Origin: an uncultured Bacteroidota bacterium | GTDB taxonomy: Bacteria > Bacteroidota > Bacteroidia > Bacteroidales > GCA-2748055 | Reading direction: 5' to 3' | Assembly: GCA_963783435.1 (NCBI GenBank) | Contig: CAWANQ010000004.1 | Span: 948,428 to 1,012,427, forward strand | Length of the DNA: 64,000 bases | Part shown: positions 31,337-40,863 of the stretch, one piece after another | Numbering within the stretch: the first letter of the stretch is position 1 | Layout: each line of letters begins with the position of its first letter | Translations under genes and position numbers: made by a program | Notes under the pieces: generated by a model | What the model was told of the DNA's origin: nothing | The model's input: the letters and a program-made list of their open reading frames with translations, nothing else | Databases searched by the model: none

Positions 31337-31855
31337 TTATCCTGGAGTTTCCCACTTGATGAATTGTGGGACCGGATCTCCATGAATACCCGAAGGGATA
31401 TCAATACTGAATACGGCTTTCTGACTTGCGTTGATCATTTGTACAACATCTTCATACTTACCTTTTAATTCCCGGTCAAGACCCGTTCCGAAAATAGCAT
31501 CGATAATGGCATCAGCCCTATTTATTGTTTCTAATGCTAATGAAACATCGTGCAGATCAATTACATTAATTTGCAATTTATTGACGATATCAAAATTTTG
31601 TTTTGCCGCACCCTGGAATTTAGAGCGGTCACCCAAAATAAAAACGGTTACTTTACCACCATTGGAATAAATTTTTCTTGTTACCACCAATCCGTCGCCG
31701 CCATTATGGCCAACGCCACAAAAGGTCACAAAGTTTTTGTTTTTGATTCCAAACTCTTTTAAAATAGTGTAATAGGCGGCCAAACCGGCATTTTCCATAA
31801 GAATTTCCTGGGCAATACCATATTCTTCAATGGCCCTGCCCCGGGAGGATCCCAA
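31337..31855 (-). pseudogene. nnrE: NAD(P)H-hydrate epimerase (NnrE/YjeF-N) fragment, truncated at both ends
   Basis: Core motifs are present (LMENAGLA, FCGVGHNGGDGLV, DAIFGTGL, IDIPSG). The usual first ~12-15 residues are missing, with TAATAA immediately upstream of a TTG at 31855. The end diverges after IDIPSGIHGD. No NnrD half follows. Confidence 0.65.
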
Positions 31856-32988
31856 TTATTATATGAATACCAGCCATTGTATTGCCCAGCATTTCCCCAA
31901 TTCATGTGAAGAAGATCAGAAGTGGTTGCAGTACAATCCTCATGATAGTAAGTAAATATACGATAACCATCACATACCCAAGCATGGCCAGCACTTTCAT
32001 TGGTATTGCCACCCCTTAAAATAACAGGTCTATCATTTCCAATTTCAGTTTTAACAGTATTATAACTATAAGTACCATAACTCGCACTAGTATAGTTAAA
32101 TTGGTCTTTCAAAACATCAACAGCAATTGAAGTATAAGCAAAAGTTCCATTACAATCATAATCTGGGTAAGTACTATTCTCATTGCTAATAGCATCCCAC
32201 ACGTCCAGAATAAATTCAGCCGTTGTATCTGTACTAGAGCCAAATGGCATTGAAACCCAACTGTAACTGGTAGGATATTCATGTGTTCTCATAACCATTG
32301 CTATTGCAAGAGGCACACAACCTACACGAGCATTATCACTTGAACCGCCGCATGTAATAGTGGGTAATTCATCATTATAACCGCCTTGTTGCTGCCATGT
32401 TGGAGTCGTTATCGGCCCAACAGTATACATCTCCGTGTGTTCATAGCAATCATCTTCTGTTGGTTCAATCTTTAAAGAGAAAACCTCATTAATTAGTGAA
32501 TGCTGAACGCGAGCCCAGACTTTCTCTATATCAATGGATTGCCCTAGATTCGAAAACTGAATCTTCTCTATCTGAGCTGATGCATCTTCCATCCAGAAGC
32601 TTAAATTTGGGATGAATAAGGCCTCTTCTACTGCAAAGTTATTATTTGTCGAATATGCCAATATTGGCATCACTCTATTAGCAGCTGATAAAATAACAAA
32701 ACCTCCTTCCTCATAATTAATGATATAATATGATGTCCTTTCAGACTTGTTTAGTATTTCATCAATACTACTTACAATCTTAGTTGTAGGCTTTGTGCTC
32801 TTAAGACCTGAACTACCATCTGTTGGGAAATAAATGCCATTCGCAATGTCCTCGATAACTGATAACTCCACAAAGTGGTCATTTGAGAAATACCGCGATT
32901 CCAGCTCATCCTCCTGCGAGCAAGAATATGCAACAATAACAGCAAGAAATAACATTAAGAAATGTTTTGGAAGAAGTAAGTCTTTCAT
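31759..32988 (-). CDS. Peptidase C10 (streptopain-like cysteine protease) lipoprotein with I69-type propeptide
   Basis: 409 aa. Lipobox VIVAYSC. Propeptide pattern YEEGGFVILSAANRVMPILAYS. Catalytic Cys context VGCVPLAIAMVMRTHEYP and His context SAGHAWVCDGY. The 3' tail (..DPPGAGPLKNMV..) reads through into nnrE sequence. Confidence 0.8.
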   Translation of the reverse strand: MKDLLLPKHFLMLFLAVIVAYSCSQEDELESRYFSNDHFVELSVIEDIANGIYFPTDGSSGLKSTKPTTKIVSSIDEILNKSERTSYYIINYEEGGFVILSAANRVMPILAYSTNNNFAVEEALFIPNLSFWMEDASAQIEKIQFSNLGQSIDIEKVWARVQHSLINEVFSLKIEPTEDDCYEHTEMYTVGPITTPTWQQQGGYNDELPTITCGGSSDNARVGCVPLAIAMVMRTHEYPTSYSWVSMPFGSSTDTTAEFILDVWDAISNENSTYPDYDCNGTFAYTSIAVDVLKDQFNYTSASYGTYSYNTVKTEIGNDRPVILRGGNTNESAGHAWVCDGYRIFTYYHEDCTATTSDLLHMNWGNAGQYNGWYSYNNWDPPGAGPLKNMVLPRKFLWKMPVWPPITLF

Positions 32989-33518
32989 GGTTTTAGGTTT
33001 AGATTTTCAAGTTGGTACATTATTCATCTTATTGAGAGATATTTCTGTTAAATGAAATAGAAAAGCTTTAAACTAGTATGATCAATTTATCTTAGGATAA
33101 AATGCCATCAAAATCATTTTAAGTTCTATAATGTACTATCCGGAATGAACACAATTTGTTACCGGTTTTTCACATGCTCTACAGCATAAAAATCCAAATC
33201 AGAATTAAAATGCAGGAAAATATGAGATGAGCTATCTTTTCTTATCCGTTTCGATTACAATGCAGGCAATGGGAAAGCATGCATGACAGAAAGGCGAGGA
33301 GATAAAAATAGGACACCCTCCAAAAGAATAGAAGATGTCCTGTTATGTCGGCAGTTTTGAACGAAGTTCGAACCTTCTTTGAGGCAGATTCGGCTCCATC
33401 CTGATAAAAACCGGTAGATACTGCCCCATCCGCCATACGATCCCCGTCCCATCAACCCAAATGTTCCACATTTTTTATCCGGCATAACATGTAAAATCAA
33501 TCCCATCTGTTGAATTAT

Positions 33519-33806
33519 GCTCGCGCATTCCCCGCAGCAGAGCTGCGGGGTTAGCGAGCGCAAAATAGTAAACAATTAATCGAAGATTCCTCGAAGCTTG
33601 CTTCGAGGAGCTTCAATAGAAGATGCCTCGTCCGCCGCGGCGGACAAAGAGCTTAAATTTTTCCCTTTCACAACGATCTATTAATTCTATTGGGTGGGCA
33701 AAAGTTTCGTAGGAACGGTTTTGCTCTTTTCAAAAACTCGAGTGCCCAAAGGGCGCGTTTTTTGAAATGGGCAAACCGGACGGAGAAACTTAATCTTCAA
33801 TAGATC
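33519..33806. other. Array of perfect GC-rich hairpins in an ORF-free gap (candidate structured RNA or MITE/REP-like element)
   Basis: H1 33519-33559, H2 33582-33614, H3 33630-33645 (16-nt palindrome), H4 33696-33726, H5 33728-33767. There are also 8-bp long-range complements and a 10-nt direct repeat cttcaataga at 33611 and 33795. Confidence 0.6.
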
Positions 33807-34100
33807 ATACTCATTTTTGATTCTAAGCATAAAAGAAATATAAATTCCCTCTATCTCATCAGATTATCAACCAGATAACTGATCGATCAAAAAATAATTC
33901 AAAAAAACTTTGAAAATCCGGGTAACAAATCCTGATCCATATTAATCCGACAGTCTTAGCCACACGGTAACTACCAGAACTCTTACCTATGATCCTGGAC
34001 GCTGACTGTCCCACTCTTGTTCTTTTTCTCCCAGACAAATTCCCACACAAGATAACGGGACACCCAAAAACATCAAAATCTAAGGCCTATAAATAAGATT

Positions 34101-34124
34101 ATCAGCGGATTAAAAATTCGACTG
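34101..34124. repeat. Relic copy D of the short motif family
   Basis: The sequence atcagcGGATTAaaaatTCGACTG shares ATCAGC, GGATTA and TCGACTG blocks with copy C in the same order and orientation. Confidence 0.4.
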
Positions 34125-34145
34125 AATTGGAGTGACGTAAACAGG

Positions 34146-39501: not shown

Positions 39502-39710
39502 CGTTGCTTAGCTTCAGAGAGACTTACAGTTGGAGATCCTTCGGCATACTCAACCCATTTTCTGAAATCTTCCTCAGAAATAGGTTTTCCTGGCAAAGCG
39601 ATAGAATTCAGATCCGGTTCTCTGACGATCCTGATCAGTCGCTTATGCTCCAACTCCTGTAGTGCCTTCAGGGAATTGGTATCTGTAAGTTCTATTGTTA
39701 TAGTCTGCAT
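39459..39710 (-). CDS. Putative antitoxin partner of ParE
   Basis: 84 aa counted from MQTITIELTD.. (internal ATG 39710, 11 nt after the XRE stop). Call is based on its small size and its position overlapping the toxin start. Confidence 0.55.
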   Translation of the reverse strand: MQTITIELTDTNSLKALQELEHKRLIRIVREPDLNSIALPGKPISEEDFRKWVEYAEGSPTVSLSEAKQRWATQKIKLQKLIR

Positions 39711-39720
39711 CTGAGGTATA

Positions 39721-40068
39721 TTAAATTGTATATGCCTGTCTGGCTTTGGCATCCCTTAAAAAGGTATCAATCACAAAATACAACTTTGATTTTGTCTCGG
39801 AGTCTAACTTTTCAATATCTTCCAGACGCTTGATGTCCTGTTGGCTGTACTTGGCGATAGCACTTTTACCAAGCAGGTAGTCTATGGTTACTCCAAATAC
39901 ATCTGCGATTTTTTGAGCCATCTCGATAGAAGGGGCATTTTCATTGCGCTCATATTTGCCAATGATATCCCTAGAAGCGTTTACAGCCCTTGCAAGGTCA
40001 GCCTGGGACCATTTTTTCTGCTTTCGCAATTCTGTTATCCTACTTCCAATGTTTATCATATAGCACAA
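39721..40068 (-). CDS. XRE-family helix-turn-helix transcriptional regulator
   Basis: 115 aa. HTH_3 pattern ITELRKQKKWSQADLARAVNASRDIIGKYERNENAPSIEMAQKIADVFGVTIDYLLG. Confidence 0.85.
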   Translation of the reverse strand: MCYMINIGSRITELRKQKKWSQADLARAVNASRDIIGKYERNENAPSIEMAQKIADVFGVTIDYLLGKSAIAKYSQQDIKRLEDIEKLDSETKSKLYFVIDTFLRDAKARQAYTI

Positions 40069-40295
40069 AAATATATTAAATATGACTATTTTCTTTAAAA
40101 AATGTTAATAAAGTTCTACAAATCGCAGATAACGGAATAGCTGAACAATGAAAATTACTCCAAATCCAATACTTGATAATGTAAAATGCGATTTTTTTGA
40201 GCTTGCAACTATATTTAGTTACTTTTGAAATCAATAGAAAACATTTTCTGATCACAAGATTCCTGAGCATACCATCTGAATTTTAGTACAACGAG

Positions 40296-40430
40296 ATGGT
40301 TAAACTACCTGGGAACTTCGATTTTGAAGAAGTGGAAACGGGCAAAAAACCCGGACCCAGGGTTAAATTTTTGAAACCGGAAGGTATTCCGATCAAGCAT
40401 CATTATTCGCATGCATCGTGCTTTAAATAG
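40296..40430 (+). pseudogene. 44-codon ORF, possible degenerate HicA-like toxin remnant
   Basis: MVKLPGNFDFEEVETGKKPGPRVKFLKPEGIPIKHHYSHASCFK, ending 37 nt upstream of hicB. It only loosely resembles the HicA core and lacks the C-terminal part. Confidence 0.25.
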
Positions 40431-40467
40431 CACTATCAACAGAAACAAATTTGTAAATATTGGGCTT

Positions 40468-40863
40468 ATGAAAAACTTGGAATATAAGGGTTATACAGGG
40501 ACCATTGAGTACAGCAAAGAAGATGGATTGCTCTTCGGTAAGGTCCTGGGAATAAAGGCACTGATCTCTTACGAAGGATCCACAGGAAAAAAGTTGGAAG
40601 CTGATTTTACAGGTGCTATTGATACCTATCTAGCAGATTGCAAACAGGATCGTGTTGTGCCGGAGAAACCTTTTAAAGGAAGCTTTAACGTGCGCATATC
40701 CCCCAAGCTTCACAGGCAGGCAGCCTTGCTGGCCATGGAGGAAAATACATCCCTGAATAGTTTTGTTGCAGAAGCTATCCGCGAACGGATCAGTAAGGAA
40801 GGTGTTTATCAAAAAAGAAGAACGCCCATCTCGAAAGAAGAGAGTTCCGTTATGTCGGGGTAG
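40468..40863 (+). CDS. hicB: HicB-family antitoxin (RHH C-terminal domain)
   Basis: Starts MKNLEYKGYTGTIEYSKEDGLLFGKVLGI.., followed by FKGSFNVRISPKLHRQAALLAMEENTSLNSFVAEAIRERI. The last 9 nt including the stop codon overlap the tRNA-Pro 3' end. Confidence 0.75.
   Translation: MKNLEYKGYTGTIEYSKEDGLLFGKVLGIKALISYEGSTGKKLEADFTGAIDTYLADCKQDRVVPEKPFKGSFNVRISPKLHRQAALLAMEENTSLNSFVAEAIRERISKEGVYQKRRTPISKEESSVMSG

Follow-up and report, generated by a model that had tools for sequence, protein, structure and literature searches.

Where an AT-rich block that encodes secreted proteases came from, how far it extends and what keeps it in place are the questions raised by a locus next to a proline tRNA gene, tRNA-Pro(CGG), of an uncultured Bacteroidales bacterium, of which a 64-kb stretch of DNA (the window) was analysed. 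In a first-pass annotation, the ~9 kb between a fragment of the nnrE gene and the tRNA gene had been described as a self-standing, horizontally acquired arsenal of proteases and type IX secretion system (T9SS) cargo, lacking an integrase and held in place by addiction modules. The analysis presented here indicates, with a probability of roughly 70%, that the AT-rich block is instead the tRNA-proximal layer of a decayed composite island of ~23 kb, built by tandem accretion at the attachment site (attB) in tRNA-Pro, and probably the youngest of its layers. A vague AT-rich island thereby becomes a defined structure, with an attachment site at tRNA-Pro(CGG), a ladder of attachment-site (att) remnants and an integrase relic. 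The structure is larger and older than had been proposed, and it belongs to an ordinary type; the general view of genomic islands is unchanged.

The initial impression, gained by eye, that the 9 kb are AT-richer than their flanks is borne out by measurement. The GC content is 0.374 for positions 31323–40853, and likewise for the originally proposed limits of 31759–40863, compared with 0.439 in the left core flank (1–22256) and 0.454 in the right one (40929–64000). When intervals of 9.5 kb are slid over the whole 64 kb, the GC minimum starts at position 31101, and in 1-kb intervals the block (0.372 ± 0.022) is well separated from the core (0.447 ± 0.025; Mann-Whitney p = 1e-10). The same is seen in the GC content at third codon positions (GC3), which is 0.305 in the C10 cysteine protease gene, 0.319 in the M43-like metalloprotease gene, 0.265 in the gene for a T9SS protein of unassigned function and 0.268 in the S74 gene, as opposed to 0.38–0.57 in core genes. 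The fall in GC sets in at ~31100–31320, just past the start of the SulP permease gene, and the nnrE fragment thus lies inside the low-GC block. The remaining layers of the array are GC-richer (0.49–0.53), which makes the array a mosaic. Differing from the core in both GC and GC3, the AT-rich block looks compositionally foreign and horizontally acquired.

The block adjoins the 3' end of tRNA-Pro, as first described, and it is this end that bounds the array on the right. A genome-collection scan with the PfkB protein encoded beside the tRNA gave 80 loci, all from metagenome-assembled genomes (MAGs) of uncultured Bacteroidales or Bacteroidota, and the 31 closest were compared with the window. In the closest relative (L001, with PfkB 91% identical at the amino acid level), ~12 kb correspond collinearly to positions 53050 down to 40854 of the window, and the homology ends exactly at the tRNA 3' end. 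The arrangement PriA-PfkB-tRNA-Pro is kept in all close relatives, while the content past the tRNA differs in each. In L001 the tRNA is followed at once by an IS6/IS240-family transposase gene (11272–11937) and then by FdhD and Nuo51-like genes, also at lowered GC; in L002 it is followed by genes for a T9SS RHS/DUF3836 protein, sulfatase fragments and an AAA_14 ATPase. The AT-rich block is absent from every relative examined. The two outcomes that had been named as refuting the first-pass reading, an unremarkable composition and conserved synteny in all relatives, are thus both contradicted by the data. Judged by these sequences, the 3' side of tRNA-Pro is an insertion hot spot, which different mobile elements use in different relatives. 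The structure proposed here also helps to explain why MAG contigs of this lineage frequently break at tRNA-Pro: about 10 of the 31 closest contigs (L004, L006, L012, L013, L014, L018, L022, L024, L025 and L029) end within 0–400 nucleotides (nt) past it, and repeats or strain heterogeneity at the locus may be what breaks the assemblies. Rfam searches of 29–43 kb (with E up to 1) and of the whole window returned only the two tRNAs.

To the left of the tRNA, copies of its 3' end recur, all on the same strand as the tRNA itself. A repeat search over 21–42 kb revealed a pair of 50-nt direct repeats, 28061–28110 and 22257–22306, which are 92% identical. The 22-kb copy aligns with the tRNA from the anticodon loop to the 3' end, with a score of 36 compared with 16.8 ± 3.0 for shuffled sequences, a difference of ~6 standard deviations. 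The inner site, at 33 kb, is of another make. Its short match to the tRNA end is accompanied by a terminator hairpin with a 13-bp stem (33341–33310), which is 77–88% identical to the post-tRNA hairpins of two relatives, located directly past tRNA-Pro in L029 and somewhat further downstream in L003. The local alignment of the inner site with the tRNA end and its flank scores 43, compared with 19.4 ± 3.7 for shuffled sequences (again ~6 standard deviations). Since the 40–45 nt past the real tRNA are homologous to the native post-tRNA terminators of relatives, the tRNA end together with its terminator appears to be duplicated around the 7.5-kb segment 33354–40853. A fourth, att-like copy is found near 18 kb, directly past the stop codon of the NMO gene, a homolog of which also lies in the variable region past tRNA-Pro in L002. 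These sites delimit four segments, S1 to S4, of which S4 is probably the oldest. The island is therefore not a 9-kb unit ending at the nnrE junction: the att-bounded unit reaches 28061 and the array 22257, probably even 18019.

The absence of an integrase from the 9 kb is correct as far as that interval goes, but a relic of a tyrosine recombinase gene is located just outside it, at 28 kb. In a tblastn search with the integrase of the relative L010, the relic shows 50% identity over 76 residues (373–448, E = 4e-18), a part that covers the HxxR and Tyr region, and 56% identity over a 34-residue alignment (residues 215–245). It also gives weak matches to the C-terminal part of XerS and to PHROG integrase families (5e-5 and 1e-4). 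The distance between the relic and the 28-kb att repeat is 212 nt, and its direction of transcription is towards the tRNA. An apparently intact counterpart is found in L010, where tRNA-Pro and a repeat of the tRNA 3' end (16638–16659) flank a 5.5-kb island (11107–16659), with a mini-element, described further below, and a further repeat beyond. The L010 island encodes a resolvase and a 472-amino-acid protein with Phage_integrase and Arm-DNA-bind_5 domains, the latter gene lying next to the distal repeat and transcribed towards the tRNA; orientation and position of the relic with respect to its att repeat correspond to this layout. In the window, no recombinase domain was detected in any island open reading frame or in six-frame scans, the ~110-residue relic being all that was found, and no relaxase or conjugation domain was detected among the reading frames scanned. 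Because L010 shows that an integrase element can sit between the tRNA and older material bounded by att sites, the youngest segment should be the one next to the tRNA, which agrees with its having the lowest GC.

The proposed history of the array is as follows. An incoming element with a tyrosine recombinase would recombine with the 3' end of tRNA-Pro(CGG). Each insertion would restore the tRNA 3' end, bring in a terminator and push earlier elements outward, the residue of this process being the same-strand pseudo-tRNA 3' halves at 33.35, 28.06, 22.26 and probably 18.02 kb. Decay would subsequently have left a single integrase relic, reduced hicA, the S8 protease gene and nnrE to pseudogenes or fragments, truncated the C10 gene at its 3' end and seen part of the interior replaced by a cassette of SulP permease and beta-carbonic anhydrase genes (SulP-CA). 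The array would now be immobile on its own. The order in which the layers arrived, and the insertion of each by an integrase, we infer from this arrangement. Such a history would explain how secreted-protease and T9SS cargo entered and became fixed in an uncultured, probably sediment-dwelling lineage of Bacteroidales.

A scheme of integration, decay to cis-mobilisable elements (CIMEs) and accretion has been reviewed, with ICESt1 and the CIMEs of Streptococcus thermophilus and the tRNA-Lys islands of S. agalactiae as examples (PMC5704250). The array resembles these systems in the use of a tRNA 3' end as the target site, in the same-strand att-like repeats that delimit its segments, in integration and transfer genes that are lost or present only as a relic, in the existence of a relative with an intact integrase-bearing element on the tRNA side of older material, and in the combination of toxin-antitoxin genes with adaptive cargo. 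Like a CIME, it has att sites on both sides and lacks genes for integration and transfer. It differs in its host, which is an uncultured member of the Bacteroidales and not of the Firmicutes, and in that no conjugation or mobilisation gene, or relic of one, was recognised; cis-mobilisation is putative here. Its layers are also more eroded, one att site being degenerate and another atypical, and an unrelated SulP-CA cassette having been inserted.

Several observations weigh against this reading. The array contains no intact integrase, relaxase or excisionase gene, and the mobility of its layers is something we infer. At the inner 33-kb site, the exact match to the tRNA end is limited to 10 nt, and the site is preceded by a conserved 32-nt motif (motif A) instead of a recognisable tRNA half. 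S1 and S2 (28111–33343) may consequently be one element of 12.7 kb, and the nearly equal GC of S1 (0.374) and of the C10/nnrE part of S2 (0.373) fits a single origin. Being degenerate, the 18-kb copy may carry no meaning; the chance expectation for such a match was estimated at ~0.004 for the window. The relatives belong to other species or genera (PfkB at most 91% identical), and the absence of the block from them does not date its acquisition. Instead of being products of recombination, the 50-nt repeats could stem from a repeat family that is dispersed, namely the mini-element. Finally, the window comes from a MAG, and the one identical independent contig, the Logan contig L081, spans 34047–38502 and includes none of the junctions of the block.

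Table 1. Features of the tRNA-Pro array, with positions in the window unless a relative is named
Feature	Position	Strand	GC	Evidence or content
tRNA-Pro(CGG), intact	40854–40928	-		ARAGORN; Rfam 63.2 bits; 3' end is the attachment site and right boundary of the array
Inner att-like site	33300–33353	-		CCGACATAAC (33353–33344) equals last 5 nt of tRNA plus next 5 nt
att repeat, pseudo 3' half of tRNA-Pro	28061–28110	-		distal boundary of the 12.7-kb tRNA-proximal unit; begins with reverse complement of tRNA 3' end
att repeat with distal half of mini-element	22257–22330	-		TAATCCGCTACCCCGAC matches tRNA 3' end 16/17
att-like fourth copy	18019–18040	-		GAGTAATCCGCTACCTCGGC, 17/20 to consensus
Segment S1	33354–40853		0.374	hicB, hicA pseudogene, HTH-antitoxin-ParE, S8 relic, S74-T9SS-M43 operon, structured end
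Segment S2	28111–33343			truncated C10, nnrE fragment, SulP-CA cassette, integrase relic
Segment S3, older	22307–28060	+	0.495	bounded by the two 50-nt att repeats
CarboxypepD_reg protein, 1280 amino acids (S3)	22483–26325			Pfam
T9SS fn3/cadherin cargo (S3)	26285–27934			Pfam
Segment S4, probably oldest	18041–22256	-		
OMP_b-brl_3 TonB-dependent-like receptor (S4)	19313–21724			Pfam
NMO (S4)	18070–19149			Pfam
Tyrosine recombinase (integrase) relic	28322–28648	+		~110 C-terminal residues including HxxR...Y region
SulP bicarbonate/sulfate permease and beta-carbonic anhydrase cassette	28647–31322	-	0.50–0.58	Pfam
nnrE (YjeF_N) fragment, pseudogene	31337–31855	-		YjeF_N profile positions 2–146 of 169; TIGR00197 positions 14–162 of 206
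C10 (streptopain-family) cysteine protease with I69 propeptide	31759–32988	-		Pfam C10 3.4e-23 (83.3 bits), I69 5.1e-14 (52.9 bits)
Hairpin-dense noncoding stretch	33354–33800	-		~450 nt, GC-richer; minimum folding energy z = -5.6
Intrinsic terminator of S74-T9SS-M43 operon	34150–34168	-		7-bp stem with 6 GC pairs, T-run; 64 nt past M43 stop
M43-like zinc metalloprotease	34232–35359	-		Pfam Peptidase_M43 28.5 bits (cut-off 23); signal peptide
T9SS type-A cargo, 309 amino acids, function unassigned	35365–36294	-		Por_Secre_tail 7.5e-12; beta-rich N-terminal domain and C-terminal domain
S74 tail-fibre-like surface protein	36291–37532	-		Pfam S74 5.9e-8; signal peptide; public annotation starts at 37523
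S8 subtilase relic	38135–38458	+		~100 internal residues; tblastn with S8 homologs
ParE/RelE-family toxin, apparently intact	39151–39501	-		ParE_toxin 7.8e-10, profile positions 1–88 of 89
Putative ParE antitoxin, 97 amino acids	39459–39752	-		position only; overlaps ParE by 43 nt and HTH gene by 32 nt
HTH_3 repressor (RstR/CapH-like)	39721–40068	-		HTH_3 8e-17; phage_RstR 88.1 bits (cut-off 80); PADLOC capH 1.7e-14
hicA toxin pseudogene	40230–40442	+		tblastn with L021 HicA: 59% over 71 amino acids, two in-frame stops
hicB antitoxin	40468–40863	+		Pfam HicB 8.4e-19; PHROG HicB-like 9e-39; 81% identical to L021 HicB
Mini-element in relatives	11107–11292 in L003; same place in L005, L006, L008, L009, L014, L020, L021, L022, L027 and L030; 16660–16853 in L010			

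According to the model first put forward, the block is a self-contained island of ~9 kb, whose integrase was never present or was cleanly lost and which is kept by two toxin-antitoxin loci. The compositional block does fit these limits, ParE and HicB genes do lie at the tRNA end, and no integrase is found between the coordinates. The model is nevertheless improbable in the light of what both ends of the block contain. Both the att repeats and the integrase relic are found to the left of the nnrE junction, and at the junction itself a truncated C10 gene is fused to a doubly truncated nnrE, which marks it as an internal deletion scar and not as the end of an element. The nnrE fragment has lost its first ~13 codons at the scar (~31840–31850), and its 3' part is cut off at a second deletion or replacement junction, ~31340–31380, where the SulP-CA cassette starts.

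The C10 protease with an I69 propeptide was correctly recognised, both domains being found by Pfam. The protein has a lipoprotein-type signal ending at Cys23, and the aligned homologs show no variation at its catalytic Cys and His or in the motifs GCV and GHAWV; the closest of these homologs (44–65% identity) come from uncultured and marine Bacteroidota. Past residue ~380 it diverges from its ~397-residue homologs: the last ~17 residues (ending in ...KLMIxNIxP) are missing, and 30 amino acids read in frame into the nnrE fragment take their place. The truncated lipoprotein protease is, on sequence grounds, possibly crippled. Known C10 enzymes of Bacteroidota include the Bfp lipoproteins of Bacteroides fragilis and those of Porphyromonas and Prevotella. 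The protein of the window shares with these the C10 and I69 domains, the Cys and His, the lipoprotein signal and a core whose typical length is ~397 amino acids, and differs from them in the exchanged C-terminus and in that no adjoining inhibitor gene was recognised.

The SulP-CA cassette, which includes a 170-nt upstream region, sits between the nnrE fragment and the integrase relic. As it truncates both of these genes, it is best regarded as a later replacement inside S2. Copies of the cassette occur in four metagenome contigs (L089–L092) at ~84% nucleotide and 93% amino acid identity; the homology stops at the same coordinates in these contigs, with unrelated DNA on both flanks and no mobility gene seen adjoining the copies. 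The possibility that this flank is conserved core was ruled out, since it is a 2.7-kb cassette with unrelated flanks elsewhere.

At the other end, only part of the two proposed toxin-antitoxin loci survives inspection. The HTH_3 repressor gene, the 97-residue reading frame and the ParE toxin gene form one overlapping three-gene unit with the repressor gene first; the 97-residue putative antitoxin has no match in Pfam, NCBIfam, PADLOC or PHROG. The HicB antitoxin gene is intact, but its partner hicA is dead, being interrupted by two stops. The closest intact homolog of the hicA pseudogene is the 78-residue HicA of L021, where hicAB is adjacent to tRNA-Pro and 75% identical in nucleotide sequence to the pair in the window; in L021, a second conserved motif, motif B, follows within 100 nt and then another att-like copy. 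The homologous part of hicB stops at ~40800, and its 3' tail reads over the post-tRNA terminator-like sequence and overlaps the tRNA by 10 nt. A PADLOC search of eight island proteins found only the generic helix-turn-helix (capH-like) protein and no evidence of a defence system. With hicA dead, the ParE locus is the only possible toxin-antitoxin pair, which leaves the idea of addiction modules holding the island in place weak. Addiction is not needed for retention either, because an island that has lost its integrase would remain where it is anyway.

A perfect Bacteroidetes-type promoter consensus (TTTG, a 20-nt spacer and TACTTTTG) is found at 40196–40227, directly upstream of the hicA pseudogene. 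This pattern has 5 matches in the whole window, compared with 1.8 expected by chance, and the orphan hicB may still be transcribed. A sigma-70 promoter scan is uninformative for Bacteroidota.

The decayed S8 subtilase of the first-pass annotation is real in its origin, although only an internal relic of ~100 residues is left of it. A phmmer search with the relic gave 1376 matches, the best with 56% identity, the top ones being proteins of 700–800 residues with Peptidase_S8 and Por_Secre_tail domains; in tblastn searches, only residues ~340–490 of such homologs, in which the S8 domain is followed by a C-terminal domain (CTD), map onto the window. The relic is surrounded by 1.6 kb of otherwise unrecognisable sequence (37533–39150), and six-frame Pfam scans of 32980–34240 and 37520–39160 gave no match. 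A PrcB-like partner of the protease had been suggested, but Pfam, NCBIfam and PDB searches with the 145-residue open frame downstream lend it no support. The "protease arsenal" is therefore overstated. Secreted or surface proteases are present, yet the S8 protease is a 100-residue relic and the C10 enzyme is truncated at its C-terminus, and only part of the arsenal is likely to be functional.

S1 also carries the minus-strand operon of the S74, T9SS and M43 genes (37532 to 34232). The spacing of its genes, with an overlap of 4 nt between S74 and T9SS and a gap of 5 nt between T9SS and M43, and the hairpin that follows them confirm that it is an operon with a clean terminator. In a contig from another sample (L171), the three-gene unit is found together with the same terminator hairpin, at 78.6% nucleotide identity and with a GC content of 0.357.

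The M43-like protein is a candidate member of its family, with a Pfam match that exceeds the cut-off. In the motif HETGHNLSLHH of this protein, a Ser replaces the conserved Gly of the metzincin consensus HEXXHXXGXXH, and the NCBIfam metzincin match is far under its cut-off. The 309-residue protein is confirmed as a T9SS protein of unassigned function by profile matches to its CTD (45.8 and 48.2 bits in Pfam and NCBIfam) and by the predicted fold of that domain. In the AlphaFold2 model, with a mean confidence (pLDDT) of 84, the CTD resembles the CTD structures of RemA, NucA and mirolase, with TM-scores of 0.7–0.87 normalised to the CTD chain; comparison of the N-terminal domain of the same model with known structures gave no convincing match. 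The family is small, comprising 22 proteins, members of which are also found without the operon. The S74 protein consists of a signal peptide, a Gly/Ser-rich N-terminal part, a Peptidase_S74 intramolecular-chaperone domain (residues 186–263) and a weak T9SS CTD. Its description as a tail-fibre/S74 T9SS protein is thus sound for the S74 domain, while the CTD scores below threshold (TIGR04183, 19.7 bits with a cut-off of 23); most of its homologs carry PF18962. T9SS cargo is accordingly represented clearly by the 309-residue protein and weakly by the S74 protein, and the C10 and M43-like proteins have no CTD detectable by Pfam or NCBIfam. The surviving cargo of the AT-rich layer, that is the C10 lipoprotein and the operon, would serve as surface or secreted equipment if it is expressed and exported, and the S74 product would resemble a trimeric fibre matured by its intramolecular chaperone.

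It is very unlikely that the block is what remains of a prophage or phage satellite at tRNA-Pro, with the S74 gene, the RstR-like repressor and the toxin-antitoxin genes as surviving phage genes. The S74 protein does match tail-fibre families of PHROG (best 6e-21), the repressor matches phage_RstR and phage repressor families, and an integrase relic exists. The PHROG families, however, align to the S74 protein by their C-terminal ends only, within the chaperone domain, and the signal peptide and T9SS-type C-terminus are those of ~150 cellular homologs in the databases. These "tail fiber domain-containing" T9SS proteins have in common with the protein of the window a signal peptide, a repetitive N-terminal part, an S74 domain, which opens with an SD(L)RxK motif, and a T9SS CTD; the copy in the window differs in that its CTD is under the NCBIfam cut-off, and the genes downstream of the homologs vary. 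No paper on S74 domains in T9SS cargo was found. The neighbours of the S74 gene are T9SS cargo and a metalloprotease, and the scan of island proteins against PHROG revealed none with a capsid, terminase, portal, baseplate or lysis function.

Equally little can be said for native, fast-evolving or decaying DNA that became AT-rich through relaxed selection or AT-biased mutation in pseudogenes and intergenic regions, a reading with a very low probability. Noncoding or pseudogenic DNA does make up ~3 kb of the 9.5 kb (33.0–34.2 kb, 37.5–39.15 kb and the nnrE fragment). Decay of this kind is at odds with the GC3 values, which are lowest in the intact reading frames (0.27–0.32), and with the noncoding stretch at 33.35–33.8 kb, which is GC-richer than the surrounding block. 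As the homologous operon of L171 is as AT-rich as that of the window, the low GC is a trait of the cargo lineage and did not arise by local decay. A native origin is also at variance with the position of the block between att repeats and with its absence from the relatives.

An assembly artefact, in which a low-GC fragment of another population was joined at repeats, is just as hard to credit: the MAG source, the frequent breaks of related contigs at tRNA-Pro and the lack of a junction in L081 would allow it, but the window is part of a 1.15-Mb contig, the repeats of 10–50 nt are too short to mislead modern assemblers, and the junctions bear signatures of their own, namely the duplicated tRNA end and terminator, the in-frame C10-nnrE fusion and a hicAB pair related to the tRNA-adjacent one of L021.

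The tandem accretion proposed here may also be compared with the mobilisable elements of the NBU1/NBU2 type in Bacteroides, which use a tyrosine recombinase to integrate into tRNA 3' ends. By their description, these are similar in the Bacteroidota host, the Arm-DNA-bind_5 and Phage_integrase domains (as in L010), the tRNA 3'-end target and the short common core. The array differs in its target, tRNA-Pro(CGG), in that no mob/oriT module was found, and in that the relic shares no more than 50% identity even with the integrase of L010.

The mini-element and the hairpin-dense end of S1 are the only parts of the locus that might represent new biology. Of the 31 closest relatives, 14 have the mini-element, of ~186 nt, next to tRNA-Pro, some of them as two tandem copies; in L010 it is displaced by 5.5 kb. 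It is made of a 16-nt inverted repeat (AAAAGAGAAAAACCAT / ATGGTTTTTCTCTTTT, covarying between genomes) around three hairpins and, past these, a pseudo 3' half of tRNA-Pro. Copies with an intact distal end finish in a repeat of the tRNA 3' end, ...GAGTAATCC(C)GCTACCCCGAC. In L003 the terminator hairpin comes only past the mini-element, while in L002, L016, L024 and L031 it stands directly past the tRNA. The RNAalifold consensus has 49 pairs, 25 of which show compensatory changes. Neither the mini-element nor the 33.35–33.8 kb stretch belongs to an Rfam family, the best sub-threshold match being BTnc005, with 21 bits and a cut-off of 175. The window has the distal half of the mini-element only, which marks the 22-kb att site. 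It is conceivable, but rather doubtful, that the mini-element is no deletion scar and represents either a miniature integrative element of the non-autonomous kind or a structured RNA linked to the tRNA, maintained and moved in trans by integrases specific for tRNA-Pro. It would in that case seed the att ladder and so prepare the ground for larger islands, the AT-rich protease block among them.

The hairpin-dense stretch has no Rfam or Pfam match and carries two conserved modules, namely motif B (33720–33790), which is a hairpin, and motif A (33347–33378), whose 32 nt, AGAAGGTTCGAACTTCGTTCAAAACNGCCGAC, end in GCCGAC. The motifs are 83–97% identical in the variable DNA next to tRNA-Pro of three relatives (L002, 15935–16269; L017, 11156–11187; L021, 13131–13177), the proteins of which are only ~75–80% identical. 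The stretch may represent an RNA or else the arm region with which an element ends. Motif A was also considered as a tRNA-like or tmRNA 3' end, which was rejected, as ARAGORN and Rfam gave nothing and only 32 nt are conserved.

Two further observations concern genes at or near the locus. In four contigs with homologs of the S74 protein (L082, L084, L086 and L088), the homologous gene heads an operon, and the genes downstream are varied, including Sortilin/BNR-repeat proteins, other T9SS cargo and small proteins without assignment, with an M4 protease nearby. Homologs that combine S74 with a CTD are often found near integrase fragments, AbiEii or tandem HepT/MNT toxin-antitoxin pairs, which suggests that S74 and CTD genes constitute a mobile, cassette-like family of surface operons. 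In the right core flank, a gene predicted to encode a 327-residue pfkA-like 6-phosphofructokinase (44609–45592) lies between priA and the next gene and is precisely absent from L001. The collinearity with L001, at 84–86% nucleotide identity, runs through this site, so that the two genomes appear to differ there by the clean presence or absence of a single gene.

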